Assembly: GCA_041498295.1 (NCBI GenBank) | Contig: JBGQIB010000005.1 | Location: 1 to 58,293 of the forward strand | DNA: 58,293 nt | Direction of reading: 5' to 3' | DNA from: a bacterium | Lineage (GTDB): Bacteria; Myxococcota_A; UBA9160; SZUA-336 | Part shown: one piece after another, positions 1,184 to 58,293 of the stretch | Layout: each line of letters opens with the position of its first letter | How positions within the stretch are numbered: the stretch's first letter is position 1 | Notes under the pieces: model-generated | The model's input: only the letters and a program-made list of their open reading frames with translations | The model's database searches: none | Told to the model about the DNA's origin: nothing | Program-made: the position numbers and the translations under genes

Positions 1184-1517
1184 CGGCGCTGGCGACGCGA
1201 AGCGCGCGCCTAGCCCAGCCGACGAGCGCTTCCCCGTCGTCGAGCTCGGCTTCGGGCAGCGACCAGTAGCTCGCGACGCGCACCTCGCGGAGCTTGGTTA
1301 GATAGCGGAACGCCTCGGAGCCGAGTGACTCGAGCTCGCTGGCGAGCACGGCATCGGTCCGCAGGAAGAGCATCCCCTTGCTGACGAACGCGAACTGCAC
1401 GCCCCCGACGACGAGGCCGTGCCCGCCGAAGAAACGGCGCGCGCGCACGGCGCCGATGGGCACGAGCACGTCCACGAGGTACGCGACCAGCTCGTCCCCG
1501 GGCTTCGGCGCGCTCAA
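1125..1517 (-). CDS. TfoX/Sxy N-terminal domain protein
   Basis: RARRFFGGHGL, LFLRTD and SYWSLP..LDDGEALVGWARRAL motifs; TTG start overlaps upstream stop (TTGA). Confidence 0.8.
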   Translation of the reverse strand: MSAPKPGDELVAYLVDVLVPIGAVRARRFFGGHGLVVGGVQFAFVSKGMLFLRTDAVLASELESLGSEAFRYLTKLREVRVASYWSLPEAELDDGEALVGWARRALRVASAVRRKTYPKGAPAGRATPAR

Positions 1518-1873
1518 CGGAGGACGGCCTCGACGTCGCCGAAGAAGCCGCGGACGCGCTGAATGCGCCCGTCGGACCCGCTTTCGGCGAAGCTGATGCC
1601 CGGCGCGACGACCGCGCCCGCAGCGTCGAGCTGGTCCCAGCGTGCGACGCTGCAGCCGTGGTGCGCGCTCACTGCCCGGATGTGGAACGAGTGACCGGGG
1701 AAGCCGCGCTGAAATCCGGCCATGTAGTCCGAGAACGCGCGCAGCCCGGCGATCGAGACGTTCGGATCCGTGTACGAGACGTCGCCCGCGACGCACGCCG
1801 CGAGCTCTCGCTCGCGCCGGTCCGCGTCGAGTGACCAGATCCCCGCGTAGCGTCGCCATTGCTCAAGAGTCAT
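1514..1873 (-). CDS. SnoaL/NTF2-like protein
   Basis: 119 aa; YTDP and GISFAE..DGRIQRVRGFF pattern. Confidence 0.75.
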   Translation of the reverse strand: MTLEQWRRYAGIWSLDADRRERELAACVAGDVSYTDPNVSIAGLRAFSDYMAGFQRGFPGHSFHIRAVSAHHGCSVARWDQLDAAGAVVAPGISFAESGSDGRIQRVRGFFGDVEAVLR

Positions 1874-2459: not shown

Positions 2460-2564
2460 GTTCTTGGTCAACCACTCAAAAATAGCGGCTCGTGCACGCA
2501 CGCACACTCCGAGGTTGACCTGCCGTCGGTGGCGAGCGTACGGTGGCGAGCGAAGGAGACACCC

Positions 2565-3719: not shown

Positions 3720-4181
3720 TCACCGGCTGGCCCGCAGCCGAGCTACTCTTTCGGCGGGCCAGACGTCGTCGAGCTTGTAGATGCTCTGGACGGCGCGTGC
3801 GCCCTCCGGCAGCACGATCCACGGGAGCTTCGTGCACGTAAAGATGTGGATGTCGGGGACGACCGTGCTCGGGTCGTCGAGCGTACCCGCGCGCACGAAC
3901 CAGCACTCGGCGGGCACCATGCGATAGTCACTCCATACGTACGTGCCGCACGTTCCGCAGAAGTAGACGACGTGGTCTTGGCCGCTTCCGCCGGACAGCC
4001 TGAACGACCTCGGTTCGGCGCCCTTCGCCGTGACGAACTTCTTCTCGATCCAAAGATTGATCACGAACGGACCGCCCGTGATGCGCTGGCAATCCCGGCA
4101 GTGACAAGCGTGCACGATCAAAGGGTCCGCGCTGAGCTCGTAGCGGATCGCGCCGCACGAGCAGCCTCCTGTTCGAGTCAT
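3720..4181 (-). CDS. GFA (CENP-V/Mss4-like) family protein
   Basis: GGCSCGAIRY, CHCRDCQR, FCGTCGT. Confidence 0.9.
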   Translation of the reverse strand: MTRTGGCSCGAIRYELSADPLIVHACHCRDCQRITGGPFVINLWIEKKFVTAKGAEPRSFRLSGGSGQDHVVYFCGTCGTYVWSDYRMVPAECWFVRAGTLDDPSTVVPDIHIFTCTKLPWIVLPEGARAVQSIYKLDDVWPAERVARLRASR

Positions 4182-4252: not shown

Positions 4253-5536
4253 TCAGGGAATCGAGATCGCGCCCATGAACTCGTTCATGCGCTCGCGCGC
4301 GTACTCACCCTGCTCGGGGATCGGCACCTCGGCGGGAATGCGCACGATGAGCGAAATCTCGACCAGGAGATCGCGGCGCGCGAGATAGCGACTCACTCCG
4401 ATCGTGGTCGGGCTGGTATCGGGTGGGCTCTGCTTGTACGGCGCGGTCGGGAAACAGGGAGTCGCCGCGCGACTTCGAACCAGCACCTCGATGAGCGCGC
4501 CCCAGGGTCCGTCGAGCTCGCGGAGGAGCACCTCGTCGCGCGCGAGGCCGACGCTCTGGCCCTCGACCTGTTGCAGGATCGCCTTGTGCACCTGCGCGCT
4601 GCCCTGCATGCGCTTGGGCAGGATCGTGCGCACGACGGCCGCGGTGCTCGGTTGCAGCGTTCCAGCCGAGAACGCGAGATAGTCGTCTCGCACGCCGCGC
4701 GCGGTGTCGTTCAACTGAATGCGCACGTCGAGCGTCTCGACGTACGGGAGCTGCGGAAAGACCACCGCAACGTCTCCGCCGGGAAATTCGAAGCGGCCGC
4801 TCTTGCGGAGTGACTCGGCGTCTGGATGCGCGGACTGCTCGTTCGACACCCTCCCCTCGCGGCAGCTCGCGTGATCCTCCCAGATGGCGCCGATGCTCTT
4901 GGCGCGCGCGGCCGGCCCGATCTGGTACGAGGAGCCGAGTTTGTCGAACGGCCCGCCGGGTGCGCGCTTCGCGCCATCCAAGCCCGCGGCCGTATACACG
5001 CGCAGCCGCTCGAGCACCGCCTCGCTGCGCAGGCCCAGGTCATGGGCGCGCTTGAAGTCCGCGTGCGCCTCCGCCTTGCGCCCCATGCGCTCGTAGAGGA
5101 GCCCGCGGTCGAAGAGCGCCTCGTCGTCGTCCGGCCGGAGCTCGAGCGCCTGGTCGTAGTCCGCGAGCGCCTTCTCGCGGTCGCCCGCGTCCGACCATGC
5201 GGTCCCGCGACTCACGTAGTCCTCCCACGGATCGTCCGGACCGAGCGCGAGCGAGTACCCGAAGTATGCGGCCGCCTTCGCGGGCTCGCCCGTCATCCGG
5301 TAGGTGTCACCGATGTTGCGGTAGGTGCGCCCGAGTGAGTGTCGAGTCAGGTTGCCCTTGTCGATGCAACCCTCGAAGAGCCCGAGCGCTTGGTCGTATT
5401 GTCCGGACTGACTCGCGCGCGAGCCCTGCAGGCAGAGGCTCAGGTCCTCTTCCTTGCGCTCGCCGGGAGACGCACAGCCCGCGAGAAGCAGCGCCGCCAC
5501 GGCGAGGACCGGTCTCGTGCGCTCGCCGCGACTCAC
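4253..5536 (-). CDS. TPR-repeat lipoprotein with uncharacterised C-terminal domain
   Basis: Lipobox LLLAGC; TPR repeats (ALADYDQALELRPDD..ALFDRGLLY); GTG start overlaps upstream TGA. Confidence 0.75.
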   Translation of the reverse strand: MSRGERTRPVLAVAALLLAGCASPGERKEEDLSLCLQGSRASQSGQYDQALGLFEGCIDKGNLTRHSLGRTYRNIGDTYRMTGEPAKAAAYFGYSLALGPDDPWEDYVSRGTAWSDAGDREKALADYDQALELRPDDDEALFDRGLLYERMGRKAEAHADFKRAHDLGLRSEAVLERLRVYTAAGLDGAKRAPGGPFDKLGSSYQIGPAARAKSIGAIWEDHASCREGRVSNEQSAHPDAESLRKSGRFEFPGGDVAVVFPQLPYVETLDVRIQLNDTARGVRDDYLAFSAGTLQPSTAAVVRTILPKRMQGSAQVHKAILQQVEGQSVGLARDEVLLRELDGPWGALIEVLVRSRAATPCFPTAPYKQSPPDTSPTTIGVSRYLARRDLLVEISLIVRIPAEVPIPEQGEYARERMNEFMGAISIP

Positions 5537-7133: not shown

Positions 7134-7541
7134 ATGAAGATCGAGGGCGGATGCTACTGCGGTGCGCTGCGCTACCAGGCGGAGGGCAACCCGGTGTTCA
7201 AAGGCCAGTGCCACTGCCGCGAGTGCCAGTACTTCTCGGGCGGACAGCCGAACGTCGTCATCGGGATGCCAGGCTCGGGTTTCTCGTACACCAAGGGCAA
7301 GCCGAAGGGGTTCAGCCGCAAGGATCTCGCAAAGCCCGTGACTCGCGAGTTCTGCGCGGAGTGCGGCACGCACATCCTGACTCACGCGCCTGGGCTCGCC
7401 GGCGCGGTCATCTTGAAGGTCGGCACGTTCGACGACCCGAGTCTCTTCGACGGACCGCAGATGGCGATCTACACGATCGACAAGCAGGCGTTTCACCACA
7501 TCCCGAGCGGCGTGCCGACGTTCGAGCGCATGCCGGGGTGA
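7134..7541 (+). CDS. GFA family protein
   Basis: GAGGAG RBS; GGCYCGALRY, CHCRECQ, FCAECGT. Confidence 0.9.
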   Translation: MKIEGGCYCGALRYQAEGNPVFKGQCHCRECQYFSGGQPNVVIGMPGSGFSYTKGKPKGFSRKDLAKPVTREFCAECGTHILTHAPGLAGAVILKVGTFDDPSLFDGPQMAIYTIDKQAFHHIPSGVPTFERMPG

Positions 7542-7542
7542 G

Positions 7543-8163
7543 TCACTCCGTCGTCGGCTTGCCGTCGAGGCGGAACTGGAACACCGAAGCGATGAACGCG
7601 CCGACGAGCGCGAGTCCCATGTCCTTCTGCGCGTCCCACTCGTCGCCCTGCGTGCCGAGATACGCGGTGCCCGCCGCCGGGTCGACGATGGCCGCGACGA
7701 TCCACTCGACGATCTCGTACCCCATGCTCCACAGCCCGACGCCGGCGGTGGCGAAGTAGAGCTTCGCGAAGCGGCCGAGCTTCGGATCGTTGCGGAAGCC
7801 GAGCTCCCGCATGGGGCGAAGCATCAGCAAGCCGAACGAGAAGTGCACGACTCGGTCGAAGTGATTGCGTGCGAGGCTGAGCGCGTCCTTCAGCCAGTCG
7901 CCGAGCGGGACGTTCGCGTACGTGTAGTGACCGCCGATCGCGTGCAGGATCATGAAGGCCGTCATCTGCACGTAGGCGCGGTCCGAGAAGCGAAAGCGGC
8001 GAAAGGTCGCGAGCGCGGCGCCTACACTGGCAAGTGTCAGCAGGTTCTCGAGCAGCCAATCCGTGCGGTTGTGCGGGGAGATCGCGCACACCGCCCAGAC
8101 CGCGAACCAAACGGCCAGGCACATCGCGGGAACGGTGATCGGCTGCCCCTGACTGCTGTTCAC
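7543..8163 (-). CDS. DUF2238 (YjdF-like) membrane protein
   Basis: DWLLEN, HAIGGHYTYANVP, RNHFDRVVHFSFG, YEIVEW, YLGTQGDEWDAQKDM. Confidence 0.9.
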   Translation of the reverse strand: MNSSQGQPITVPAMCLAVWFAVWAVCAISPHNRTDWLLENLLTLASVGAALATFRRFRFSDRAYVQMTAFMILHAIGGHYTYANVPLGDWLKDALSLARNHFDRVVHFSFGLLMLRPMRELGFRNDPKLGRFAKLYFATAGVGLWSMGYEIVEWIVAAIVDPAAGTAYLGTQGDEWDAQKDMGLALVGAFIASVFQFRLDGKPTTE

Positions 8164-9351: not shown

Positions 9352-10383
9352 CTAGCCGTCGATGAGTGACTCGAGACCTGTTCCGACGAGCGCGCGGTCG
9401 ACGGCGTGGCGCGAGGCGAGCGGGAGCTGCGCGTAGTCGGCGCGCAGCCACTCGAGACACTTTCCCTGATACGGGAAAGGCTTCTGGACCCAGCGGCGGC
9501 CGTCGATCGTGCACTCGACTTGCTCGGCGCCGCGCGCGAGCGCCGCGGCGTTCGCGAGCAGGAACGGGGCGTACACGCGGCCGGCTTCGCGGAGCAGCGC
9601 GCGGAAGGTCTCGGGCACGGCGTCGCGCTCGATCCAGCCGTCCTCGGCCGGCTCGACGCCGGAGAGGTCGTCGACGAAGTCGACCCAGGCGACGACGCGC
9701 GGCGCGGTCTCGAGCGCGATCGCCGCGGGCGTCGGATCCACCTGCACGAGCTGAGTGAGTTGGCCGTACAGCGCGAAGTCACTCGCGCCCGGCCGGGCGC
9801 CCATCACGAAGCGCGACTCCGTGAGGCGCGCGGCGAGCAGCGCGAGCAGGCGCACGTAGCTCGCCTCGATCAGCGGCCCGGTCGTCTCGTTCGACCCGAC
9901 GACCCACAGCCGGTCGATCTGCCGCTTGGCGAACAGCTCGCCGAGCGCGCGCGCTTCGGCCTCGGGTTGGTCCGTTCGGCCCCAGCGCGGCAGGATCGCC
10001 GACGCGCGCGCGACGTCCGCGTCGTACGCCCAGCGGTAGTGGAACATCGCCTTGGTGAGCCACTCGTCCGCGTAGTCCTCGAGCAGTGAGTCGAGGAACG
10101 CGACGGCGGGATCCGCCGGGACGACGCTGCGCCCCGCGTACGCTCGCTCGAGCTCGCGCAAGAGCGGCGTCGAGTCGACCTGCGCCTCGAGCGCGCCGTC
10201 TGGCCCTGTCGGCCCGACGAGCTGCGGCAGGAGTGACACGCGCGGCTGCGGCAAGCCGCGGCCCTCGAGCGAGCGACTCAGCACCCACACGTGCGGGATG
10301 CGGCGATAGCGCATCGCGGCCCGCAGCTTCCGGCTGTACGGCGAGCCGGGCATGCCGACGAGCGTCCAGATCGAGTCAGTCAT
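9352..10383 (-). CDS. Glutathione S-transferase family protein
   Basis: GSPYSRKLRAAMRYRRIPH, DSTPL, EDYADEW, PGASDFALYGQL. Confidence 0.85.
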   Translation of the reverse strand: MTDSIWTLVGMPGSPYSRKLRAAMRYRRIPHVWVLSRSLEGRGLPQPRVSLLPQLVGPTGPDGALEAQVDSTPLLRELERAYAGRSVVPADPAVAFLDSLLEDYADEWLTKAMFHYRWAYDADVARASAILPRWGRTDQPEAEARALGELFAKRQIDRLWVVGSNETTGPLIEASYVRLLALLAARLTESRFVMGARPGASDFALYGQLTQLVQVDPTPAAIALETAPRVVAWVDFVDDLSGVEPAEDGWIERDAVPETFRALLREAGRVYAPFLLANAAALARGAEQVECTIDGRRWVQKPFPYQGKCLEWLRADYAQLPLASRHAVDRALVGTGLESLIDG

Positions 10384-13364: not shown

Positions 13365-14260
13365 ATGATCTCCGCGAACGAGACCTTCGATGGCACCTGG
13401 CCGTTCCGCCCGCACTTCTACGAGGGCAGCGGCTTCCGCATGCACTACGTCGAGGAGGGCACGGGCGATCCGATCGTGTGTCTCCATGGCGAGCCGACGT
13501 GGGGCTATCTGTACCGGCGTTTCATCCCGCGCCTTGCGCGTCTCGGCCGCGTCGTCGTTCCCGATCACATGGGCTTCGGCAAGAGCGCCACGCCGCAGGA
13601 TCGCGACTACTCGATCCGCGCGCACGTCGACAATCTCGAGTCACTGCTCGAGCACCTGCGACTCACCGACATCACGTTCGTCGGGCAGGACTGGGGCGGG
13701 CCGATCGCGACGGGCTTCGCGCTGCGACATCCGGAGCGCGTGAAGCGCCTCTGCTACATGAACACGGGGGTGCCGGGGCGCCCGCCGCCCGGGGTCAAGA
13801 CCGTGATTGACTTCCCGTGGTTCCAGTGGGTGAAGAGCGCGGAGAGCCAGGCCGTGCTCGCGAACCTCGGCGCGACGATCTTGTCGGTGATGAAGCGGAT
13901 CGGCTTCGAGCGCACCGCGCACGTCGACGAGACCTGGATTCGTGCGTACGCGGCGCCCTTCCCCACGCCCGCGGACTGCAAGTGCGCGCTCCAGTTTCCC
14001 CGTGCATCGGCGCGGCCGAGACGATGGCGACGATCCTCGAGCACATCGGCAACCTGCCGGCGCTCGCCGCGAAGCCCGCGATGTACGTCCACGGTGAGGC
14101 CGACCGCGCCATTCCCACCGAGATGTCCGTCGGCGCCTTCCGCTCGACCTGGCCCAAGGGCCCCGTCGTCACCCTACCCGGCGTCGGTCATTTCATCCAG
14201 GAAGACGCGCCCGAGACCGCGTGCGCGCTGATCGAGCAATTCATCCAGATGACCGAGTAG
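13365..14260 (+). CDS. Haloalkane dehalogenase/OleB-like alpha/beta hydrolase with a 1-nt frameshift near 14000
   Basis: HGEPTWGYLYR, QDWGG nucleophile, GHFIQED in second frame; break at CCCC run 13998-14001. Confidence 0.8.
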
Positions 14261-20407: not shown

Positions 20408-20417
20408 CGCCTGCTCC

Positions 20418-24639: not shown

Positions 24640-24642
24640 CGC

Positions 24643-43191: not shown

Positions 43192-45630
43192 TTGATCGTG
43201 TCGCCGCTGACTAGACTCGCCGTCGTTCTCTGCGCGTCGTGGCTCGCGCTCGTGCCGCGCGCTCGAGCCGACCTCGCACCGCCTCCGACGCCGGCGCCCG
43301 AGGAGGTCAGCACCGCCGCGGCGACGATCGCCGCCCCGGAGATCGTGACTCGCGCCGAGGAGGCGAAGGCGCTCGTGCGCCGCATCGCCGAGCAGACCTC
43401 CGACGACGGCGTGCAGCGCGAGATCGAGGAGAAGCTCCCGGAGACGGCGAGGAAGCTGCGCGAGCGTACGGCGCGCGCCGACGAGATGCTCGAGCTCTCA
43501 CCGACCTTCGACGCGGTGAACGACCTCAGCAACGAGTGGCGCGCGCGCGCGCAGAGACTCGCCGACTGGCGCCTCGCGCTGACGAAGAGTGCGCAGCTGA
43601 TCGAGACCGACCTCGTGCTCCTGCAACAGGAGCGCGTGGTCTGGGAGCGGACGCGCGATGCGCCCGAGGCGGCCGCGCTCCCGCTCGGGACGCGCGCGCG
43701 CGTGAACGAGACGATCGAGGCGCTAGCGCACGCCGAGCACACGGTGCAGCGCCAGCGCAGCTCGATCCTGACTCTGCAGAACGAGGTCGCCGGGGAGGAG
43801 CTCGTCGTGCGCGCCATGGTCGACCGCGTCGCGAAGCAGCGCGACGACCTCGACAAGCGTTTGTTCCTGCGCGACGCGCCACCCCTCTGGAGCCTGCAAG
43901 CCTACGCGCCGTCGGGTGACTCGACATTCGTGCCCGAGAAGATGCGCGCCGCGGTCGAGCGCAAGCTCGATCTGCTCCAGGAGTTCGCGAGTCTTTCCCT
44001 CTCGCGCCTCGAGCTCGAAGCGCTGTTCTTCGCGCTCGTGCTCGGCGCGCTGCTGCTCTCGCGCCGGCGCGTGCTCGCGTCCCCAGAGGTGCAGACCGAC
44101 CCCGCCCTCGCGGTGCCGACGCGAATCTTCGACCGGCCGATCTCCGCGGCGCTCGTCGTGTCGATCGCGTGGGCGGCGTGGCTCTTGCCGCGCGCGCCGG
44201 GCGTTTTGGCGGAGGCGGAAGCGCTGGTCCTACTCGTTCCGGTGTTGCGACTCCTGCCGACGGAGCTCTACGGCGAGCTGCGGCCCGGGCTCATCGGCCT
44301 GGCGCTGCTCTTCGTTGTCGGCTCGGCGCGCGGGTTCTTCTCGCTCGTGCCGACGGTGGAGCGCTTCCTGCTCCTGCCCGAGACACTCGGCACGCTCGCG
44401 CTTCTCTACTGGCTGCAGCGCCCCGAGCGCGCGCAGCGGTTCCGGAGGATCGGCGTGTTCGGCCCCTTGGTGGCGCCCGCGGCGCGCGTCGCGCTCGCGC
44501 TCTGCCTGGGCGCGGTGCTGTGCAACGTGCTCGGGCTCGTGCTTCTCTCGCGCCTGCTGTTGCGCGGCATCCTCGCGAGCATCTACGGCGCGGTCGCGAT
44601 CTACGCGCTGCTGCGTTTCGCGAGCGGCGTAGTGACTGCGCTGCTGCGCAGCGAGCCTGTGCGCCGCCTGAGACTCGTGCGCGACCACGGCGAGCTGGTA
44701 CGGCGGCGCGCGCTCGCGATCCTACACTGGGTCGGCGCGATCGCTTGGGTGCTCAGCTCGCTGCGCGTCGTCGGGCTACAGGACAATCTGACCTCCGCAG
44801 TCACGAGCGTGCTGAGCGCGAGACTCGAAGTCGGCGCGCTGTCCGTCAGCCTCGGCAACGTCATCGCGTTCTTCTTCACGATCTGGTTCACGATCCAGAT
44901 CTCGCGCTTCCTGCGTTTCGTGCTCGAGCAAGACGTGCTGCCCCGCATCGAGCTGCCGCGCGGGGTGCCCGCGGCGATCTCTACGGGCGCGCACTACGCG
45001 ATCCTCGCGGCGGGCTTCGTCATCGCGATCGGCGCGGCCGGCGTCGACCTGTCGAAGTTCGGCCTGGTCGCGGGCGCGCTCGGCGTCGGGATCGGTTTCG
45101 GCCTTCAGAACGTCGTAAACAATTTTGTGTCGGGTCTGATTCTTCTGTTCGAACGACCGGTGCAGACCGGCGACATGATCGAGGTCGGCACGCTGCAGGG
45201 CGAGGTCCGGCGCATCGGCATCCGCTCGAGCACCGTGCGCACGTTCGAGGGCGCGGACGTGATCGTGCCCAACGCGAGTCTCATCTCCGAGAGAGTCGTG
45301 AACTGGACGTTCAGCGATCGCACGCGCCGCATCGATCTTCCAGTCGGCGTCGCGTACGGCTCGGACCCGACGAAGGTGATTGCGCTCTTGGTCGCGACCG
45401 CGCGCGGGAGCTCCGAGGTGCTGTCACTCCCCGAGCCGGTCGCGCTCTTCGTCGGCTTCGGCAACAGCTCGCTCGATTTCCAGCTGCGCGTCTGGTGCCG
45501 CTTCGAGCTCGGACCGCGCGTGAAGAGCGAGCTCGGCATCGCGCTGCACGCTGCGCTGCGCGGCGCGGGCATCGAGATCCCGTTCCCGCAACAGGACGTG
45601 CACCTGAAAGTGGAGCCGCCGGGGTCCTGA
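43192..45630 (+). CDS. Large MscS/MscK-family mechanosensitive channel
   Basis: GALGVGIGFGLQNVVNNFVSGLILLFERP, GIEIPFPQQDVH; periplasmic coiled coil. Confidence 0.92.
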   Translation: MIVSPLTRLAVVLCASWLALVPRARADLAPPPTPAPEEVSTAAATIAAPEIVTRAEEAKALVRRIAEQTSDDGVQREIEEKLPETARKLRERTARADEMLELSPTFDAVNDLSNEWRARAQRLADWRLALTKSAQLIETDLVLLQQERVVWERTRDAPEAAALPLGTRARVNETIEALAHAEHTVQRQRSSILTLQNEVAGEELVVRAMVDRVAKQRDDLDKRLFLRDAPPLWSLQAYAPSGDSTFVPEKMRAAVERKLDLLQEFASLSLSRLELEALFFALVLGALLLSRRRVLASPEVQTDPALAVPTRIFDRPISAALVVSIAWAAWLLPRAPGVLAEAEALVLLVPVLRLLPTELYGELRPGLIGLALLFVVGSARGFFSLVPTVERFLLLPETLGTLALLYWLQRPERAQRFRRIGVFGPLVAPAARVALALCLGAVLCNVLGLVLLSRLLLRGILASIYGAVAIYALLRFASGVVTALLRSEPVRRLRLVRDHGELVRRRALAILHWVGAIAWVLSSLRVVGLQDNLTSAVTSVLSARLEVGALSVSLGNVIAFFFTIWFTIQISRFLRFVLEQDVLPRIELPRGVPAAISTGAHYAILAAGFVIAIGAAGVDLSKFGLVAGALGVGIGFGLQNVVNNFVSGLILLFERPVQTGDMIEVGTLQGEVRRIGIRSSTVRTFEGADVIVPNASLISERVVNWTFSDRTRRIDLPVGVAYGSDPTKVIALLVATARGSSEVLSLPEPVALFVGFGNSSLDFQLRVWCRFELGPRVKSELGIALHAALRGAGIEIPFPQQDVHLKVEPPGS

Positions 45631-47525: not shown

Positions 47526-49109
47526 GTGAACCGCGGCGCCGCGCTCACCGGCAGTCTTCTGGTCGCGACCGGCCTGTCGATCTTCGCGTGGAAGACGCTG
47601 GTCCTACACCTTCCGGTGTTGCCCTCGAACGTCGAGAACCTGTGGCGCGTCGAGCTCGAGATCGACGCGCGCGGCTCGGGGCAGCGCGGCAGCGTGCGCG
47701 CGTCGCTGCCCGACTCCGACTCACAGCAGGAGATCTTCGACGAGCGCCAGACCAACGACCGGCTGGTGTTCACGATCCGCACCGAGAAGACCGGCCAGCG
47801 CCTCGGCGTGTGGAGCGGGAAGTTCGACGGCGTGCACAACCTGTCGCACGCCTTCCGCGTGCAGCTGGCCGAGGAGCCTCTGCCGCTGCCGACGGAGCTG
47901 GCTCTGGAGCCGCCGAAGGACGTCGTCGACTCGTACCTCCATTCGAGCGGGCGTTTTCCGTCGGACGCGCCCGAGATACGCGACCTGCTCGCGAATCTCG
48001 GGCCGCCCAACCCGTCCGACCCTCTGGGCCAGATGCGCGTGCTGCTCGGCTACGTCACCGACGAGATACTCACGGCGAACACCGGCAGCGACGACGCGCT
48101 GCTGACGCTCGCCGCGGGCGAAGGGAGTCAGGTCGGAAAGGCGCGGCTGCTGGTCGCGTTGTTGCGCGCCGCGGGCTATCCGGCGCGGATCTCGGCGGGG
48201 CTGCGCCTGCACGCCGACAAGGAAGCGCGCGAGGCGATCTGGGCCGAGGCGTGGGTGGGCGGCGCGTGGATCGCGCTCTCGCCGTCGCTCGGCTTCTTCG
48301 GCGCGCGCCCGCCGGACCTGCTCCTGCTGCGCACCGGCAGCTCGACCTTGGTCGAGGAGACCGGCCTCGATGCGCTCTCGTTTCGCTATCGCGTGCTGCG
48401 CGAGTCACTCCGCGCGAACGAGGTGGCCTCCTTCATGGTGCCGTCGAACCCGCTCTTGGCCGCGATCTCGCTGTACCGTCTGCCCGTCGGCTCGCAGTCT
48501 GCGCTGCGCATCCTGCTCGTGTTTCCGATCGGGGCGCTGATCATCGCGCTGATTCGGAACATCATCGGCGTACGCACGTTCGGCACGTTCATGCCGCTGC
48601 TCATCTCGCTCGCGCTGCGCGAGCTGCCGCTCACGCTGGGCCTCGCGCTCGTGGGCTCGGTGATCGCGCTCGGCATCGTGTCTCGCTTCCTGCTCGAGCG
48701 CCTGCAGCTCTTGCTGGTGCCGCGGCTCGGCGTGCTGTTGTGTCTCGTCGTGCTCGCGATCACCGCGCAGTCACTGCTCGGCCGGACATACGAGGTGAAG
48801 AACCTGTACGCGAGCGTGCTCTTCCCGGTGGTCATCATGACGATGCTGATCGAGCGCTTTTCGATCACGACGGCGGAAGAGGGGCTGCCCGCGGCGGTGC
48901 GGCGCCTCGCGACCTCGACCGCCGCGGCGGTCTGCGTCTACCCGATCTTCCGCATAGCGGCGCTCGAACACTTGATGTTCGGCTTTCCCGAGCTCGTGCT
49001 CTCGGTCATGGGGGTGCTCGTCTGGATCGGCGGCTACACGGGCTACCGCGCGTCGGAGCTGTGGCGCTTCCGCAGCCTCGCGCGCGGACGCGACGAGGAG
49101 CCGCGGTGA
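47526..49109 (+). CDS. Inactive transglutaminase fused to a 7TM domain
   Basis: GSQVGKARLLVALLRAAGYPARISAG (Cys absent), IWAEAW..WIALSP; IGVRTFGTFMP, LVPRL, FPVVIMTMLIERF, GYTGYR. Confidence 0.85.
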   Translation: MNRGAALTGSLLVATGLSIFAWKTLVLHLPVLPSNVENLWRVELEIDARGSGQRGSVRASLPDSDSQQEIFDERQTNDRLVFTIRTEKTGQRLGVWSGKFDGVHNLSHAFRVQLAEEPLPLPTELALEPPKDVVDSYLHSSGRFPSDAPEIRDLLANLGPPNPSDPLGQMRVLLGYVTDEILTANTGSDDALLTLAAGEGSQVGKARLLVALLRAAGYPARISAGLRLHADKEAREAIWAEAWVGGAWIALSPSLGFFGARPPDLLLLRTGSSTLVEETGLDALSFRYRVLRESLRANEVASFMVPSNPLLAAISLYRLPVGSQSALRILLVFPIGALIIALIRNIIGVRTFGTFMPLLISLALRELPLTLGLALVGSVIALGIVSRFLLERLQLLLVPRLGVLLCLVVLAITAQSLLGRTYEVKNLYASVLFPVVIMTMLIERFSITTAEEGLPAAVRRLATSTAAAVCVYPIFRIAALEHLMFGFPELVLSVMGVLVWIGGYTGYRASELWRFRSLARGRDEEPR

Positions 49110-51418: not shown

Positions 51419-51432
51419 CACTCCTTCGTCCG

Positions 51433-52443
51433 CTAGCGAAAGGCCGGAATCACTTCGCGGGCGAAGAGCTCGAGGTGCTCGTCGGCCCATTCGGGCGGGA
51501 GACCCGGCGGGAGCGTCCAGCCGTAGAAGCGGGTGATCGGCTGCTCGGCGGCATACTTCCGGATCGCCTCGCTCGCCTGCTCGGGTGAGACGATCATCGC
51601 GCCGCGGCTCGAGAGGTCCGCGCGGCTCTTGGCGACCGCGGCGATCTGCATGCCCGCCTCGCCAAACCACTGTGCGTACAGGTTGATCTGGTACAGGAAG
51701 TGGGCCTCCGCCTCGCGCCAGCGCTTCTCGGGGTCGCGCGAGACCAGGAGCCAAGTGACTCCCGCGGCGATCTCGTGCTCGTCGGGGTTCTTGCCCAGAC
51801 GCCGCAGCTCGTCGTGGTAGATCGCGACGAGCGGCGCGATCGGACCGGTGGAGATGTAGGCGTCGCCGAGCCGCGCCGCGCGCCGCACTGCCGGCTCGGA
51901 AAAGCCGCCCACCCAGAGCTTCAGCTTCTTCTGCACCGGCAACGGGCGCAGCTCGACGTCGCGGTAGCGGTAGAAGCGCGCGTCCTGCGTCGTGACTCGC
52001 TCGCCCGCGAAGAGCCGGCGCAGGATCGGCAGCGCCTCGTTCATGCGCGCGGCGCGCTCGCTCGCGGGGATGCCGAAGCCGGTGAACTCGCCCTTGCGGT
52101 AGCCGCCCGCGACGCCGAGCTGGAAGCGCCCGTTCGACATCACGTCGACCGTGGCCGCATCCTCCGCGACGCGCAGCGGATCGTGCAGCGGCAGGAGCAG
52201 CACGCTCGTGCCGATTTGGATCTTCTTCGTGCGCGCCGCGATCGCGCACGCGAGCGGCAGCATCGACGGCGTGTAGCCGTCGGCGATGAAGTGGTGCTCG
52301 GAAAGCCAGACGTCGTCCCAGCCGAGCGCCTCCGCGCGCTCGATCTGCGCCACGATTCCCTCGTACAGCTTCGCCGGATCCTGGCGCCACTGCGGCGGAT
52401 TGCGGAAGTCGTACCAGAGTCCGAATCGGAGTCTCTGAGTCAC
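51433..52443 (-). CDS. LLM-class flavin-dependent oxidoreductase
   Basis: GWDDVWLSEHH, HDPLRVAED, RRAARLGD. Confidence 0.9.
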   Translation of the reverse strand: MTQRLRFGLWYDFRNPPQWRQDPAKLYEGIVAQIERAEALGWDDVWLSEHHFIADGYTPSMLPLACAIAARTKKIQIGTSVLLLPLHDPLRVAEDAATVDVMSNGRFQLGVAGGYRKGEFTGFGIPASERAARMNEALPILRRLFAGERVTTQDARFYRYRDVELRPLPVQKKLKLWVGGFSEPAVRRAARLGDAYISTGPIAPLVAIYHDELRRLGKNPDEHEIAAGVTWLLVSRDPEKRWREAEAHFLYQINLYAQWFGEAGMQIAAVAKSRADLSSRGAMIVSPEQASEAIRKYAAEQPITRFYGWTLPPGLPPEWADEHLELFAREVIPAFR

Positions 52444-52461
52444 GAGTGACTCCCTTCTGGA

Positions 52462-53293: not shown

Positions 53294-54391
53294 ATGAGCC
53301 AGCTCAACGAGCGCGCCGTGCTCGACGCGCTCCGCCCGATTCAAGATCCGGACTTCAAGCGCTCGATCGTCGATCTCGGGTTCGTGAAGAACCTGCGCAT
53401 CGAGGGCGGCAAAGTCGCGTTCGCGATCGAGCTCACGACGCCCGCGTGTCCCGTGAAGGAGCGCTTCGAGGGCGAGGCGCGCGCCGCGGTCGAGAAGCTG
53501 CCCGGCGTGACCTCCGTCGAGGTCACGATGACCGCGCAGACGCGCGGCTCGACGCACACGGCGCGGCCCGAGGGGCTCGAGGACGTGAAGAACGTCGTTG
53601 CGGTGGCGAGCGGCAAGGGGGGAGTCGGGAAGTCGACCGTCGCCGTGAATCTCGCGCTCGCGCTGTCCGAGACCGGCGCGAAGGTAGGGCTGCTCGACTG
53701 CGACGTTTACGGGCCCTCGATCCCGCTCATGCTGCACATCTCCGGTCGCCCGCAGGTCACACAAGACAAGAAGATCCACCCGCTCATGAGCTACGGCTTG
53801 AAGCTGATGTCGATCGGCTTTCTGGCGGGCGAGAACGCGCCGGTGATCTGGCGCGGGCCGATGGTGCACGGAGTGATCAAGCAGTTCCTCTCGGACGTGA
53901 AGTGGGGCGAGCTCGACTATCTCGTGCTCGATCTGCCGCCCGGAACCGGCGACGCGGCGCTGACCATCTGTCAGACGGCCCCGCTGGCGGGCGCGGTGAT
54001 CGTGACGACGCCGCAGGAAGTCGCACTGATCGACGCGCGCAAGGGCCTGCAGATGTTCCAGCGCGTGAACGTACCCGTGCTCGGTATCGTCGAGAACATG
54101 AGTTACTTCACCTGCGACGGCTGCGGCAAGCGCCATACACTGTTTGGTGAAGGCGGCGCGGAGCGCGCGGCGCGGGAGCTCGGCACCGACGTGCTCGGCC
54201 ACGTGCCGATGCAGCCGGACGTCGTGGCCGCCGGCGACGCTGGCAAACCCACGATCATCGGCTCGCCCGATTCGCCTGCCGCGCTCGAGCTGCGCGCGAT
54301 CGCCGGCCTCGTCGCGCGCAAGCTCTCGATGCTGGGTACCGAAACGCCGCCCGTGATCGGAACCAACATCGAGTGGGTCAACACGCCCTGA
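53294..54391 (+). CDS. mrp: Mrp/NBP35 (ApbC) Fe-S cluster carrier ATPase
   Basis: SGKGGVGKST, WRGPM, DLPPGTGD, ENMSYFTCDGC. Confidence 0.95.
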   Translation: MSQLNERAVLDALRPIQDPDFKRSIVDLGFVKNLRIEGGKVAFAIELTTPACPVKERFEGEARAAVEKLPGVTSVEVTMTAQTRGSTHTARPEGLEDVKNVVAVASGKGGVGKSTVAVNLALALSETGAKVGLLDCDVYGPSIPLMLHISGRPQVTQDKKIHPLMSYGLKLMSIGFLAGENAPVIWRGPMVHGVIKQFLSDVKWGELDYLVLDLPPGTGDAALTICQTAPLAGAVIVTTPQEVALIDARKGLQMFQRVNVPVLGIVENMSYFTCDGCGKRHTLFGEGGAERAARELGTDVLGHVPMQPDVVAAGDAGKPTIIGSPDSPAALELRAIAGLVARKLSMLGTETPPVIGTNIEWVNTP

Positions 54392-54733: not shown

Positions 54734-55516
54734 ATGCAGTCCCAGTCACGCGCGATCGCGCTCACGATCGCGGGCTCGGATCCGACGGGTGGCGCGGGGC
54801 TGCAGCTCGATCTCCAAGTCTTCGCGCTGCACGGTGTGCACGGCATGGCCGTGCCGACGGCGCTCACGGTGCAGACCACGAAGGGCGTGCGCCGCACGAG
54901 TCCGGTGTTCCCGAGCGTGGTCGCGGAGCAAATCTCGGCGCTGCTCGACGACCTGCGGCCCCAGGCGCTGAAGCTCGGCATGCTCGCCACCGACGACATC
55001 GTGCTCGCAGTCGCGAACGCGCTCGACCGCCACGTGATTCCGCGCGTCGTCGACCCGGTGTTTCGCGCCAGCGACGGCTCGTTCCTGCTCGAGCAACGCG
55101 CGCTCGGAAACCTCGTCGAGCGCCTGATTCATGGCGCCGCGCTGGTCACACCGAATCTTCCCGAAGCCGAGGCGCTGACCGGCGAGACCGACCCCGAGCG
55201 CGCGGCGCGCGCATTTCTCGAGCTGGGCGCGGAGGCGGCGCTCGTGAAGGGAGGGCACGCCGAGGGCACGCCGGACGACTTCCTCGCGACTCGTTCGGGC
55301 GCGGGTGTCTGGCTGCGCGGCACGCGCAGCGACGTCGGCCCGGTGCACGGCACCGGCTGCGCGCTCTCGGCCGCGATCACCGCGCGACTCGCGCGCGGCG
55401 AGTCACTCGAGCCCGCGGTGCGCGCCGCGAAGGACTACGTGGCCCGAGCGATCGCCGCGTCGCAAGCGCTCGGCAAGGGCGCGCGCGTGCTAGGGCTAGG
55501 GCTCGCGCGAAGCTGA
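54734..55516 (+). CDS. thiD: Hydroxymethylpyrimidine/phosphomethylpyrimidine kinase
   Basis: IAGSDPTGGAGLQ, VTPNLPEA, VKGGH, HGTGCALS. Confidence 0.9.
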   Translation: MQSQSRAIALTIAGSDPTGGAGLQLDLQVFALHGVHGMAVPTALTVQTTKGVRRTSPVFPSVVAEQISALLDDLRPQALKLGMLATDDIVLAVANALDRHVIPRVVDPVFRASDGSFLLEQRALGNLVERLIHGAALVTPNLPEAEALTGETDPERAARAFLELGAEAALVKGGHAEGTPDDFLATRSGAGVWLRGTRSDVGPVHGTGCALSAAITARLARGESLEPAVRAAKDYVARAIAASQALGKGARVLGLGLARS

Positions 55517-58293
55517 GTCCTCTGTGCGCTCGAGCGCCGCGAGCAGCGGCGGCAGGAGCAACAGCACGGCCGGTACCGTCGCGACGAGCCCCGACAAGAT
55601 CGCGATCGCGAGCGGCTGCAGCATCGCAGAGCCGCGGCCGATGCCGAGAGCGAGCGGCGATAGGGCGAGTGCGGCGGCGAGGCCGGTCATGAGGATCGGC
55701 CGCACACGCGAGCGCGCCGCGTCGAGGAGCGCGGCCTCGTGTCCGAGGCGCGAGCGCGACTCACGCCAATGAGACAGGAAGAATACGGAGGTTTCCGAAG
55801 TGACTCCAACGACCATCGTGAGTCCCATGAGCGACGCCACGTTCAGCTCCGAGCCGGTGAGCCACAAGCCGACGAACACGGCGGAACCCGCGACCGCTCC
55901 GACGGCGGCGACCGCGAGCAATGCCTGCGCGCTCTCGTACAAGAACAGCAGCACCAGCGCGACGAGGAGCGTGGCGGCGGCGAGCACCGCGGAGAGGCTG
56001 CGGAACGAGCGCTGCTGTTCGCCGTAGAGGCCACCGTACTCGACGTAAGTGCCCGCCGGCAGCTCGAGCTTCGCGACCTCCCGCTTCACGTCGTCCATCG
56101 CCGAGCCGAGATCGCGTCCCGAGATCCGTCCGGTGACGGCGACCATCGTCTTCAAGTTCTCGCGCGTGATCTGCGGCTCGCCGGTGACTCGCGTGAGCGT
56201 CGCGATGCGCTCGAGCGACGCGGTCGTTCCGTCGGCGGCGCGCAACCGCAGCCTGCCGATACGCTCGACGCTGCCGCGCGCTTCGGCGGCGGTCCACACG
56301 CGGACGCCGACCATCTTCTCGCTGCGCTGCAACTGCGTGGCGACGTCTCCTTGCAGCGCTATGCGCGCGAGCCGAGTCACCTGCTCCGGATCGAGACCGA
56401 GCGCCTGCGCGCGCATCCGATCGACGCCGATGCGCACGGCATCCCCCGCGAGCACGACGCCGCTCTTCGTGTCGACGACGCCGGGAACCTTGTGCAGCCG
56501 CTCCGCGACCCTCTCGGCCAACGTCCGCAGCGGAGCCGCATCCGAAGCGAAGAACTTGACCTCGATCGGCTGCGGCACCGCGGTGAGATCGCCGATCAGA
56601 TCCTCGACGAGCTGCGGCAACTCGACCTCGAGCCCGGGGACTTCACGCTCGACGCGCGCGCGCACGTCGTCGATCACCTCCTCGATCCCATGGCGCGGCG
56701 GCGGCTTCAGGCGCACGAAGAAGTCGCCTTCGTTCGCCTCGGTAATGAAGCCGCCGAGCGCGAGGCCCGTGCGGCGCGAGTAAGTCGCGACCTCGGGTGT
56801 GTCCGCGAGAATGCGCTCGACCTCGCGCAGCTGCCGATCGGTCTCGGAGAGCGACGTGCCGGCCGGCGCACGGTAGTCGAGCACGAAGCCGCCCTCGTCG
56901 AGCTGCGGGAGAAAGCCGGTGCCGAGCCGTTCGAACGCGAGGGCGCCGAGGATGAGTGCGATCGCGATCGCGATTCCCGCATCGCGAGGCTTCGCCACGA
57001 GTCGCCGCAATGCCGCGTCGTACCCGCGCAGAAAGCGCGCGAACCGCGGTCCGACGTCGTCCCGCTCCGCGTCCTGTCTTCGTACCAAGGCGTGAATCAG
57101 CACGGGCACGACGAGCAGCGCGACCCCGTACGAGACGGCCAGCGCCAGCGCCATCGTCAGTGCGAGCGGTCGAAAGAACGCACCAGTCACTCCCGAGAGA
57201 TAGGCGAGCGGGACGAAGATCACCGTGGTGACGATCGACGAACCCGTAAGCGGAACCAGCATCTCGCGCGCCGATGCGAAGATCGTGCGGCGGTCACCGC
57301 CATCGCCGCTGCGCAGACGGCGCATCGCGTGCTCGATCACGACGATCGCATCGTCGACGACGAGTCCGACGGACGCGGCGATCCCGCCGAGCGTCATGAT
57401 GTTGAGCGTCATGCCCAGCGCGCCGAGCAAGAGCAGGGTGATCGCGAGCGACGCTGGGGCGGCAAGCGCGACGACGAGCGTGACTCGCCAGCTCCCGAGG
57501 AACGCTGCGATCACGGCGATCGCGAGGCCCGCACCGACGAGGATCGCGTCGCGCACCGCTCCGACCGATCCCTCGATCAGCTCGCTCTGATCGTACCAGG
57601 TGGCGACGTGGAGATCGGGCGGGAGGCCGCGCGCGTACTCGCGCAGTCGCTCCGCCACGTCGCGTGCGATCTGTACGGTGTTGCCATCGGGCTGCTGATA
57701 TACGTTCAGCAGCACGGCCTCGACCCCCGCCGCGGTGACTCGCGTCCACTCGGGCGCCGTGCCGGCGCGGATCTCGGCGACGTCTTCGAGTTGGACCACG
57801 CCGCGGGCATCGGAGCGCAGAATCACGTCGCCGAGCGTGGTCACGTCACTGACCTGAGTATCGGCGAGCAGCAGGTACAGGCGCTCGTCCTGCTCCAGCC
57901 GACCCACCGCCTCGACCACATTCGAGGCCGAGATCGAACGAACGACGTCCTCCAAGGTCAGGTCCACCGCATCGAGGCGCGCGGGGTCGAGCAGCACCTG
58001 GAACTCCGCGGAGCGTCCACCCTGGACCGCGACGCGCGAGACGCCCGTGACACTCGAGAGTCGCGGCGCGAGCTCGTAGAGCGCGCGGTCGCGCAGCTCG
58101 ACGAGCGAGCGGTTCTCGGTCGACGCGAGTGACAGACCCAGCACCGGGAACACGAACGGATCCATGCGCCGCGTCTGGAACGCGGTCCCCGACGGCAGCG
58201 CGCCCGCGACGTGCGTGATCGCCGAGTCGACCTGGAGCGTCGCAGCGACCATGTCGGTGCCCCACGCGAAGTCGACCGAGACGTCGCACGTGC
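55496..58293 (-). CDS. RND efflux permease (AcrB/CusA family), 5' end outside window
   Basis: LNIMTLGG..GLVVDDAIVVIE, FLPQLDEG, RVRPILMT. Confidence 0.92.
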   Translation of the reverse strand, partial: TCDVSVDFAWGTDMVAATLQVDSAITHVAGALPSGTAFQTRRMDPFVFPVLGLSLASTENRSLVELRDRALYELAPRLSSVTGVSRVAVQGGRSAEFQVLLDPARLDAVDLTLEDVVRSISASNVVEAVGRLEQDERLYLLLADTQVSDVTTLGDVILRSDARGVVQLEDVAEIRAGTAPEWTRVTAAGVEAVLLNVYQQPDGNTVQIARDVAERLREYARGLPPDLHVATWYDQSELIEGSVGAVRDAILVGAGLAIAVIAAFLGSWRVTLVVALAAPASLAITLLLLGALGMTLNIMTLGGIAASVGLVVDDAIVVIEHAMRRLRSGDGGDRRTIFASAREMLVPLTGSSIVTTVIFVPLAYLSGVTGAFFRPLALTMALALAVSYGVALLVVPVLIHALVRRQDAERDDVGPRFARFLRGYDAALRRLVAKPRDAGIAIAIALILGALAFERLGTGFLPQLDEGGFVLDYRAPAGTSLSETDRQLREVERILADTPEVATYSRRTGLALGGFITEANEGDFFVRLKPPPRHGIEEVIDDVRARVEREVPGLEVELPQLVEDLIGDLTAVPQPIEVKFFASDAAPLRTLAERVAERLHKVPGVVDTKSGVVLAGDAVRIGVDRMRAQALGLDPEQVTRLARIALQGDVATQLQRSEKMVGVRVWTAAEARGSVERIGRLRLRAADGTTASLERIATLTRVTGEPQITRENLKTMVAVTGRISGRDLGSAMDDVKREVAKLELPAGTYVEYGGLYGEQQRSFRSLSAVLAAATLLVALVLLFLYESAQALLAVAAVGAVAGSAVFVGLWLTGSELNVASLMGLTMVVGVTSETSVFFLSHWRESRSRLGHEAALLDAARSRVRPILMTGLAAALALSPLALGIGRGSAMLQPLAIAILSGLVATVPAVLLLLPPLLAALERTEDSASREP

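Follow-up and report, generated by a model that had tools for sequence, protein, structure and literature searches.

Across the whole of a 58,293-base contig from an uncultured Myxococcota bacterium (JBGQIB010000005.1 of assembly GCA_041498295.1; hereafter the window), genes and spacers alike carry copies of a short quasi-palindrome, AGT-N-ACT, which is commonest as CGAGTSACTCG (N, any base; S, C or G; W, A or T). The word arose within one genus of uncultured soil and sediment Myxococcota; in each genome of the loaded subclade a strong directional force either keeps it in place or makes it anew at the same positions. It is best read as a genome-wide recognition word on double-stranded DNA, of the class that includes the iterated palindrome HIP1 and the uptake sequences, kept by selection or by molecular drive and with a function that we infer. 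All genomes considered here are metagenome bins (74-97% complete), and the relatives do not represent independent samples; the genome of the window is referred to as G000.

An earlier note, made by hand from the window alone, had reported 14 copies of GAGTSACTC and 49 of GAGTCAC or its complement GTGACTC. Both counts are exact, and all 14 of the 9-mers lie at precisely the coordinates given. In 100 dinucleotide-preserving shuffles of the window the 9-mer averages 0.88 +/- 0.90 copies (maximum 3, with none of the 100 shuffles reaching 14) and the 7-mer 9.86 +/- 3.38 (maximum 19); the reported excess therefore stands, although the expectations of about 0.3 and 6 attached to it were somewhat low. 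The analysed assembly comprises 4,664,533 bases in 289 contigs (69.0% GC; longest contig 85 kb; the window is its contig C5), and in it GAGTSACTC is the top-ranked 9-mer, with 762 copies (on the plus strand, the central base is C in 386 and G in 376) against 46.8 expected from an order-3 Markov model, an excess beyond the at least 15-fold, genome-wide over-representation of a short palindromic word that is characteristic of the HIP class. By the same model AGTSACT is the top 7-mer (2,090 copies vs 218.6), and GAGTCAC occurs 2,980 times. From 8-mers upward a maximum-order Markov expectation equals the observed count (762 vs 763.3), which places the excess in a core of seven bases or fewer. The related words named in the earlier note are likewise abundant, as seen for TGASTCA (672 vs 136) and GACTCACTC (420 vs 30.6) against the order-3 model, with genome counts of 106 for GACTGACTC and 213 for CAGTCACTC.

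Single-substitution analysis of the 9-mer resolves which bases matter. Constraint is strongest at the four A/T positions and weak at the outer G and C, and the central base is free, all four alternatives being enriched about 11-13x. The motif first described is refined in this way to a constrained core, AGT-N-ACT with any central base and weak flanks, within a looser A-S-T-N-A-S-T family. Next to the 9-mer, C is favoured at -1 (507/757) and G at +9 (444/757), and the information content is at most 0.05 bit beyond +/-1 base; this lack of flanking conservation indicates that the word does not belong to any longer repeat. Run lengths of the S-A-S-T pattern have their maximum at 9 (528 per Mb vs 54) and drop sharply beyond 11, as befits a word of fixed length and not a cryptic microsatellite. 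For comparison with sister genomes, four samples of about 400 kb each were drawn from long contigs within the genus. Relative to this background all A-S-T-N-A-S-T words are raised: AGTSACT reaches 448 per Mb in G000 vs 31 per Mb in G006 and G007 combined (14.3x), ACTSAGT is raised 12x, ACTCACT 10x, AGTCAGT 4.7x, and AGTWACT about 36x on a near-zero base. The shifted form T-S-A-N-T-S-A is also raised (TGASTCA, 9.6x). In G000 and G011 the word is accompanied by a halo in which many one- and two-off relatives are raised 4-10x, including ACTCACT, AGACACT, TGASTCA and GAGATAC.

The distribution of sites over reading frames was evaluated on home-made and rather crude gene calls, trained on long open reading frames rich in GC at third codon positions and scored by codon log-odds (4,501 genes, 91% coding), on which every statement about frames rests. 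In-frame GAG TCA CTC (Glu-Ser-Leu) accounts for 386 of the 762 sites; 87, 77, 64 and 38 lie in the four remaining stop-free frames, and the rest are intergenic (68) or extend across gene ends (42). Within coding sequence the 656 copies compare with 48.0 +/- 5.5 after shuffling of synonymous codons within genes and with 19.3 +/- 3.1 after shuffling of codons, i.e. 14-34x over codon-level nulls, so the enrichment survives the codon-preserving test that the earlier note had named as a possible refutation. Enrichment extends to each of the five stop-free frames (10-41x against the synonymous and 23-91x against the codon shuffle), and the four frames other than Glu-Ser-Leu are the more enriched (17-41x vs 11x over the synonymous shuffle). 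It follows that the dominance of the Glu-Ser-Leu frame reflects opportunity, in that two of its codons are common and only one rare codon is needed.

The force on that rare codon is considerable. TCA makes up 5.1% of serine codons, yet 386 of the 972 Glu-Ser-Leu tripeptides are spelled GAGTCACTC and 65 are spelled GAGTCGCTC. The third base of GAG TCN CTC is A in 386 cases, G in 65, C in 11 and T in 10, so that A accounts for 82% (386/472) compared with 7.8% among all TCN codons, an odds ratio in the motif context of about 53 by hand calculation. Independent codons predict 12.4 copies of GAG-TCA-CTC. A codon-pair Markov chain predicts 333.5 of the 386 observed, and the dicodon-preserving null that had also been proposed as a test therefore nearly reproduces the count; it cannot discriminate, because the codon pairs themselves carry the anomaly. 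The earlier observation that rare codons, both strands and several frames are used was confirmed, with ten of the window 9-mers read GAG TCA CTC, two read AGT CAC TCG and two at gene ends. The consequences for proteins are modest. Glu-Ser-Leu tripeptides number 972 against about 560 expected from residue frequencies (hand calculation), and this excess is the main trace left by the word. The broader proposition that the motif rewrites proteins was rejected, since motif-encoded serines are replaced in the motif-poor genome G007 at the background rate (32/53, vs 0.60 for other serines), and the claim is confined to the Glu-Ser-Leu excess.

Outside sense codons the word is equally conspicuous. AG-TGA-CT is the second commonest stop context (86 of 2,607 TGA-terminated genes vs 37 expected), and no 7-mer ranks above AGTSACT in the 408 kb of non-coding sequence (203 vs 34.8), where asymmetric relatives of the word show no orientation bias relative to neighbouring genes. 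The signal thus belongs to double-stranded DNA and is strand-symmetric, as the earlier note had surmised in placing it in the DNA and not in the protein: every stop-free frame, the stop codons and the non-coding DNA all show it, and the codon shuffles do not account for it. Occupation of coding DNA in all frames together with non-coding DNA is also a property of the HIP class. Density per kb is 0.43 in genes, 1.43 in convergent gaps, 0.68 in tandem gaps and 0.28 in divergent promoter gaps, and it is flat along genes. Spacing is near-exponential (coefficient of variation 0.98), and the sites are found as single copies, in an almost random scatter over genes, stop codons and spacers. No polarity of the central base was found on any of the 15 longest contigs, where C and G are mixed; this result, with the absence of orientation bias in non-coding DNA, gives no support to a polar, Chi-like role. 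Clusters that might mark an autoregulated binding protein were sought, and none exceeded three sites per 300 bases; the densest two lie next to genes for a secreted protein and an acyl-CoA-dehydrogenase-like product.

Two further patterns were noted among the relatives of the word. A second enriched word, GAGATAC/GTATCTC, is non-palindromic; in-frame TAT CTC G occurs 941 times vs 136 and in-frame GAG ATA C 95 times vs 8.7 under the codon shuffle, and its ratio by genome is 6.0 in G011, 4.8 in G000, 2.6 in G009 and 1.0-1.2 in motif-poor genomes. This second word may represent either a signal of its own or a variant two bases removed from the main word (GAG-AT-ACT vs GAG-TC-ACT). Among words with a central A or T, AGTTACT is common on the sense strand of genes (169 vs 23) and AGTAACT is not (15 vs 10.6), an asymmetry that is absent from non-coding DNA (7 vs 6 and 3 vs 4) and that we attribute to coding constraint, though it is not explained; 95 of the 358 TTA codons of the genome lie within AG TTA CT.

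The word is confined to a narrow group of organisms. Close relatives of a window protein all come from uncultured Myxococcota metagenome bins, and the genus to which G000 belongs is represented by 12 species representatives. Within it GAGTSACTC is bimodal: six genomes carry 762 (G000), 919, 785, 601, 386 and 819 copies and six carry 55-77, with 3-20 copies of the backwards-read control word across the genus. The high group consists of G000, G001, G002, G005, G009 and G011. Other genera of the family and class hold 4-75 copies. Across the phylum, 401 sampled Myxococcota genomes with a completeness of 80% or more include just two with high counts, G000 and G001, which both belong to this genus. 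G368 ranks next with 179 copies, but its control word reaches 287. The suspicion that the signal is lineage-specific is borne out by these counts. Per genome, GACTCACTC occurs 302-469 times in five genomes, 97 times in G009 and 25-40 times in the low ones. In the samples of about 400 kb, AGTSACT occurs 187 times in G000, 229 in G011, 79 in G009, 11 in G006 and 14 in G007, where 7-16 are expected. G009 is therefore intermediate and also clean, in that only the palindrome is raised (79 vs 8 expected), and G000 and G011 also carry the halo relatives ACTCACT, AGACACT and GAGATAC. No alternative iterated word was seen in the samples of the low genomes. Over 9,049 aligned columns, identity is 0.80-0.84 between high genomes and 0.76-0.79 between high genomes and the low genomes G007 and G008. 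A tree of a single conserved gene places five low genomes on one side (support 100/98) and G006 with all six high genomes on the other, and is compatible with a single origin, for which support is weak (69/64).

Alignments of about 100-300 kb per genome allow individual sites to be followed between species. AGTSACT sites of G000 are still AGTSACT at 46 of 123 places in G011 and 31 of 134 in G009, compared with 3 of 48 in G006 and 2 of 101 in G007. Most sites are not common to the loaded species, and whole-site sharing is no higher than for controls (28-31%). At orthologous places the low genomes carry ordinary GC-rich codons. Their commonest state is AGTCGCT (21/101 in G007), from which the word differs by a synonymous TCG-to-TCA change; AGGCGCT, AGCCGCT, AATCGCT and further states also occur and involve transversions and Ala-to-Ser changes, so that the sites have been made by many different types of base substitution. 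Two window sites illustrate this. The orthologues of the site at 39502 (core at 39503) in the low genomes G007 and G008 read GAGGCGCTG and GAGGCGCTC, i.e. GAGGCGCT(C/G), encoding Glu-Ala-Leu, and the orthologue of the site at 42112 reads CAGGCGCTC (Gln-Ala-Leu) in both; in each case high and low states differ by two substitutions, one of them a transversion, with an Ala-to-Ser change and no insertion or deletion. Maintenance was gauged from the synonymous A of the motif TCA. This base is retained in 29 of 38 cases in G011 and 17 of 35 in G009 vs 1 of 8 in G006 and 1 of 31 in G007, compared with 13-15% retention everywhere for other fourfold-degenerate A sites, a level that represents saturation. 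Retention of the motif A above this level shows a strong directional force in each loaded lineage, which may act by conserving sites or by re-creating them where the protein sequence allows. Maintenance of sites above the neutral level, another mark of the HIP class, is thus seen in the synonymous comparison, with only 23-37% of whole sites shared.

The search for a cognate factor focused on methylases, repair enzymes and proteins of uptake and partition. None of the families searched tracks the trait. Vsr is absent from all six high genomes and was found only in the low genome G010, C5 cytosine methylases are likewise absent from all six, no D12-class methylase was found in the five genomes searched, and DUF559 was absent from five of five with no MutH-type candidate (MutH itself was not searched for). 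A methylation-repair route through Vsr and 5-methylcytosine, related to one of the roles suggested at the outset, is not supported by these counts. The search for a co-occurring methyltransferase that had been recommended returned two orphan enzymes, both in motif-rich and motif-poor genomes. One is a small beta-class N6-adenine methylase with a DPPF motif, found in 12 of 12 genomes at >80% identity (PADLOC MTase_II, 6e-134), whose best solved relatives are M.RsrI (6e-27) and CcrM (1e-17). It scores 90.5 bits against NF050803, for which the cut-off is 830, and is not a CcrM equivalog; as the only CcrM-like enzyme, present also in motif-poor genomes, it offers no support for the GANTC link that had been pointed out. 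The other is a Type II-like methylase with an SPPY motif (PADLOC MTase_II, 1.7e-24) in 11 of 12 genomes, whose neighbours have no Pfam match; it was not found in G009, where the flanking genes are missing too and an assembly gap is possible. ComEC, the import component searched, occurs in 11 of the 12 genomes without distinction between the two groups, and ParB is found once in each of 11, the high genomes having gained no second copy. No orphan methylase therefore tracks the word in the way typical of the HIP class and, in line with the unknown cognate of the earlier note, no cognate protein is evident among the families searched.

Among known iterated words, HIP1 (GCGATCGC) is one of the closest in behaviour. 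Reportedly, Elhai proposed HIP1 as a mark for replication-coupled mismatch repair, replication timing or epigenetic control. According to PMC5861425, HIP1 is 15-300x over-represented, its sites are conserved, and roles in peptides, RNA and expression are excluded; PMC4390886 gives densities of 300-2,700 per Mb, two orphan methylases that cover HIP1, and other iterated palindromes in exceptional cyanobacteria. As described in a preprint (bioRxiv 10.1101/2024.09.10.611283), methylated HIP1 raises natural transformation up to ~100-fold, and HIP1 is proposed as an uptake 'watermark' in PMC13756078. AGTNACT resembles HIP1 as a short palindrome whose frequency exceeds expectation tens of times and which occupies spacers as well as genes, in every frame, at ~0.2-0.5 sites per kb (against the HIP1 range in PMC4390886), with common one-off variants, palindromic extensions (here C at -1 and G at +9) and sites maintained between species (for HIP1, in PMC5861425), with orphan methylases in the genome and with exceptional related genomes that lack the word. 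It differs in sequence, odd length, free central base and phylum, in being confined to part of one genus where HIP1 is found in most of a phylum, and in having no methylase that tracks it and no C5 methylase in any of six high genomes. It is not HIP1 proper, which is another word with internal GATC/CGATCG methylation, and neither C5 nor D12 enzymes were found in the high genomes searched.

The uptake signal sequences (USS) of Pasteurellaceae and DNA uptake sequences (DUS) of Neisseriaceae offer a second comparison. They too are present as hundreds to thousands of copies of 9- to 12-mers with clade-specific 'dialects', lie within genes where coding allows, and accumulate in a manner explicable by drive through uptake and recombination. 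They are denser at the 3' ends of genes; for AGTNACT convergent gaps are the densest, though density is flat along genes. The ComEC channel gene is present here as well, but equally in motif-poor relatives. Chi and the FtsK-orienting KOPS sequences share with AGTNACT the character of an over-represented short word about once per few kb, but they are asymmetric and oriented with replication, whereas AGTNACT is symmetric, lacks polarity and is far more strongly enriched. With the CcrM/GANTC system of Alphaproteobacteria there is common ground in that the 9-mer contains GAGTC, GANTCAC words are 4.5-11.7x over the codon shuffle and the genomes encode a beta-class adenine methylase that has CcrM and M.RsrI among its relatives; GAGTC alone, however, is not enriched (ratio 0.8) and the methylase is unchanged (>80%) in motif-free genomes. 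Repetitive extragenic palindromic (REP) sequences and miniature inverted-repeat transposable elements (MITEs) are not a match, as conservation does not extend beyond +/-1 base and orthologous differences are substitutions. The very-short-patch repair of the Vsr/Dcm type does not apply either, neither enzyme being present in high genomes.

In mechanistic terms, a two-fold symmetric, sequence-specific protein would read the word by contacting the A and T of two A-S-T half-sites four bases apart, AGT...ACT being the arrangement preferred by a dimer. The force would be either selection at each site or a molecular drive, for example preferential uptake, recombination or repair of word-bearing DNA, and the reader could be a gene gained in the subclade or a conserved protein with changed specificity. 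Its most likely use would be that of a self-DNA tag during uptake and/or recombination of DNA, the role currently proposed for HIP1, though we would put this somewhat short of an even chance. That the whole system evolved recently in one genus, with a new or retuned reader driving the palindrome into ~2,000 places in the absence of Vsr and cytosine-5 methylation, is a more tentative suggestion. Several observations weigh against a recognition word with a dedicated reader. Whole-site sharing is modest (46/123 and 31/134) in comparison with the 30.5% and 28.4% of stringent control 7-mers containing four A/T bases, and the retention of the synonymous A could be parallel re-creation at the few convertible places, with selection and drive inseparable here. 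One tight binding site does not obviously predict the halo, in which 5-mers of the form W-S-W-S-W are raised 2.6x in G000 and 2.4x in G011, but 0.98x in G009, and this leaves room for a mutational component. No factor among the families searched tracks the trait, with ComEC, a single ParB and the beta-class and SPPY methylases present in motif-rich and motif-poor genomes alike. Finally, USS and DUS are asymmetric and often form terminators as inverted pairs, whereas AGTNACT is palindromic and single, with no pairs seen.

A recognition word has to be weighed against several other explanations. It is unlikely, in our view, that the word is a methylation-linked mark without any role in uptake, being or containing the target of one of the conserved orphan methylases and favoured by a subclade-specific reader or repair protein; such a mark would act in mismatch repair coupled to replication, in replication timing or in epigenetic control, like the role put forward for HIP1 by Elhai. 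The genus does conserve two Type II-like orphan methylases, a situation paralleled by the two that cover HIP1 (PMC4390886), the word contains GANTC and two symmetric adenines, and the SPPY gene was detected in every genome except G009, which has half the copy number and no halo. The flanks of that gene are also missing there, however (a possible assembly gap), both methylases are intact in motif-poor genomes, so their presence does not explain the trait, and neither Vsr nor C5 methylase (0/6 high genomes each) nor a DUF559 or MutH-type candidate (with the proviso on MutH given above) was found; T:G-specific short-patch repair cannot in any case make the observed transversions. It seems distinctly unlikely that the sites bind an abundant protein of the nucleoid or of chromosome organisation that the subclade has gained or retuned and that acts in the manner of SlmA, Noc or half-parS, under weak selection per site. 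The palindromic architecture, the single and evenly scattered sites at about one per 2 kb, the avoidance of divergent promoter gaps and the maintenance of motif bases above the neutral level would all suit such a protein, and the palindromic SlmA site of Escherichia coli looks related. Against this, the sites known for nucleoid occlusion and partition are counted in tens and not in thousands, selection that holds 82% synonymous A seems excessive for one of ~2,000 redundant sites, and high genomes possess no extra ParB paralogue.

A neutral origin, in which a lineage-specific and context-dependent bias of mutation or repair toward alternating A.T.A.T words generates the pattern with neither reader nor function, we consider improbable. 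The raised W-S-W-S-W 5-mers (2.4-2.6x in G000 and G011), the many one- and two-off relatives at 4-10x, the high turnover of sites between genomes and the fact that the commonest single route, TCG to TCA, is a CpG transition are in its favour. Such a bias is difficult to reconcile with the variety of substitutions, which include G-to-T and two-step changes, with the roughly 11-13x enrichment of all four central bases and the sharp peak in pattern run length at 9, or with the clean palindrome of G009 (79 vs 8) in the absence of a W-S-W shift, and odds of A about 50x higher in the motif context would require it to be extreme and very specific. Selection on protein or translation, through a favoured Glu-Ser-Leu peptide or a codon-pair preference, is very improbable. 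Half of the 9-mers (386/762) are in-frame GAG TCA CTC, Glu-Ser-Leu is in excess (972 vs ~560), and the codon-pair chain nearly reproduces the count (333.5 vs 386); against this, the other four frames are more enriched (17-41x vs 11x), other spellings of Glu-Ser-Leu are not raised, and the word is equally prominent at stop codons, in non-coding DNA and in both orientations, the non-coding and antisense enrichment being what refutes it. An artefact of sequencing, assembly or binning, or a residue of mobile elements in the form of MITE or REP ends or footprints, can be discounted almost entirely. The word is present in six separately assembled species bins at orthologous sites amid 17-20% divergence, four independent runs reproduce the stretch, and flanks that are unconserved beyond +/-1 base together with alignments showing substitutions and not insertions complete the refutation. 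At least 19 public sediment runs hold the window stretch nearly identically, and contigs from four of them reproduce it. Systematic base-calling error, which the earlier note had raised as a possible refutation, is excluded, given that the same bases recur in the independent contigs of four sediment runs and at orthologous places in the assemblies of other species. Of 40 differences listed among the contigs of these four runs none falls in the 12 core sites of the stretch, where 0.17 would be expected, so that this comparison is uninformative on constraint.

The origin and upkeep of HIP1 and of uptake words is a decades-old question, difficult to approach because these words are old and nearly universal in cyanobacteria, Pasteurellaceae and Neisseriaceae. 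Here the word switches on within a single genus, from a baseline in G006 through an intermediate state in G009 to five fully loaded genomes, which makes word origin testable. Among the full-text literature matches listed, no earlier account of this word was found, nor of any other iterated palindrome in Myxococcota, and the listed matches to the word string were all primers. If a new or retuned reader does drive the word, it has reached stop codons, the rarest codons and some amino-acid changes, and the series within the genus could show how such words are born. Should that reader act in uptake or recombination, AGTNACT would become the first palindromic 'uptake-sequence' system outside Proteobacteria and Cyanobacteria. 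Codon usage is distorted, since the word takes in ~10% of TCA codons, roughly one in four TTA codons and 3% of TGA stops. The organism is present in many sediment metagenomes, so comparison of gene content combined with population genetics could name the responsible factor, and the word provides a sharp marker for binning contigs of this clade. Sites in the window are collected in Table 1.

Table 1. Copies of the iterated word in the window. Sites are strandless (.), and intergenic labels follow the crude gene calls. CDS, coding sequence; peptides are in one-letter code.
Element	Position	Context	Occurrence in other genomes
GAGTGACTC 9-mer	1323..1331	antisense of minus-strand CDS, read GAG TCA CTC (ESL)	
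GAGTGACTC 9-mer	4808..4816	ESL in minus-strand TPR-protein CDS	
GAGTCACTC 9-mer	7540..7548	between two convergent gene ends	
GAGTGACTC 9-mer	9364..9372	ESL near 3' end of minus-strand CDS, convergent junction	
GAGTGACTC 9-mer	16428..16436	AGT CAC TCG (SHS) in minus-strand MCP-domain gene	
GAGTGACTC 9-mer	17654..17662	ESL in the MCP-domain gene that also holds site 16428	
GAGTGACTC 9-mer	19227..19235	SHS in Na/H-exchanger gene	
GAGTGACTC 9-mer	29022..29030	ESL in minus-strand CDS	
GAGTGACTC 9-mer	30053..30061	ESL in DsbA-like gene	
GAGTCACTC 9-mer	39502..39510	ESL	identical in G001, G011, G009
GAGTCACTC 9-mer	41449..41457	ESL	among 5 genomes compared, common to G001 only
GAGTCACTC 9-mer	48402..48410	ESL in transglutaminase/seven-transmembrane (7TM) gene	core AGTCACT common to G001, G011
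GAGTGACTC 9-mer	52444..52452	start of minus-strand CDS; adjoined by GAGTCAC at 52437	
GAGTCACTC 9-mer	55400..55408	ESL	common to G001, G009
AGTGACT core	470..476	AGT GAC TGG, SDW	
AGTCACT core	3926..3932	in CDS	
AGTCACT core	9777..9783	in CDS	
AGTCACT core	13639..13645	GAG TCA CTG, ESL	
AGTCACT core	14430..14436	CGA GTC ACT, RVT	
AGTGACT core	14656..14662	SDL	
AGTGACT core	15570..15576	SDF	
AGTGACT core	20495..20501	in CDS	
AGTGACT core	25527..25533	intergenic	
AGTGACT core	25564..25570	3' end of CDS	
AGTCACT core	26195..26201	intergenic	
AGTCACT core	27236..27242	outside gene calls; open reading frame with kinase-domain match here	
AGTAACT core, central A/T	29661..29667	GAG TTA CTC (ELL), rarest Leu codon	
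AGTCACT core	32003..32009	in CDS	
AGTCACT core	33000..33006	intergenic	
AGTCACT core	33541..33547	intergenic	
AGTCACT core	42112..42118	CAG TCA CTC, QSL (CAGTCACTC)	identical in G001, G011, G009
AGTGACT core	44631..44637		private to G000 among genomes compared
AGTCACT core	48769..48775	QSL	common to G001, G011
AGTGACT core	51754..51760	in CDS	
AGTTACT core, central T	54101..54107	AGT TAC TTC, SYF	
AGTGACT core	55799..55805	in AcrB-family gene	
AGTCACT core	57185..57191	in AcrB-family gene	

Additional features were observed around the methylase genes and elsewhere in the genome. An apparent difference between high and low genomes beside the beta-class methylase is a variable slot with glycosyltransferase and epimerase genes, unrelated to DNA, and was set aside on that account. 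The slot lies upstream of the methylase gene (G000 contig C127, ~1577-3635) between conserved HAD-hydrolase and aminotransferase-like genes; it holds a GT4-type glycosyltransferase in G011, G001, G009 and G006 and an epimerase with a GT2 enzyme in G000, and is empty in G007 and G004. An 800-residue Type IIG restriction-methylase-like gene (PADLOC REase_MTase_IIG, 1.9e-59) is encoded on the minus strand of G000 contig C44 at ~25822-28224. It has an N6_Mtase match in G000 alone of five genomes, the N6_Mtase match of G007 being separate and much stronger, and the gene, which is not linked to the clade-wide trait, was set aside. In G011 the 3-4 kb SPPY region occurs twice, on contigs C53 and C84, with 74-77% protein identity to G000, and represents either a real duplication or two strains in the bin (4% contamination).

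Within the window, GC content falls to 0.62-0.64 at ~20000-35000, with few confident genes at 26.0-28.8 kb and 32.5-34.0 kb. The open reading frames of this low-GC region encode a protein-kinase-domain fragment, a TPR protein, a DsbA-like protein and several products without a Pfam match, and the region still has core sites, two of them 9-mers. At 51344-51425 (core ~51369-51400) lies a GC-rich dispersed intergenic repeat with 44-50 short-blast matches in G000, associated with a depth spike in public contigs at that bin. Many copies occur in both high- and low-motif relatives, one of them just downstream of the SPPY methylase gene, and the repeat looks REP-like and unrelated to the AGTNACT trait.

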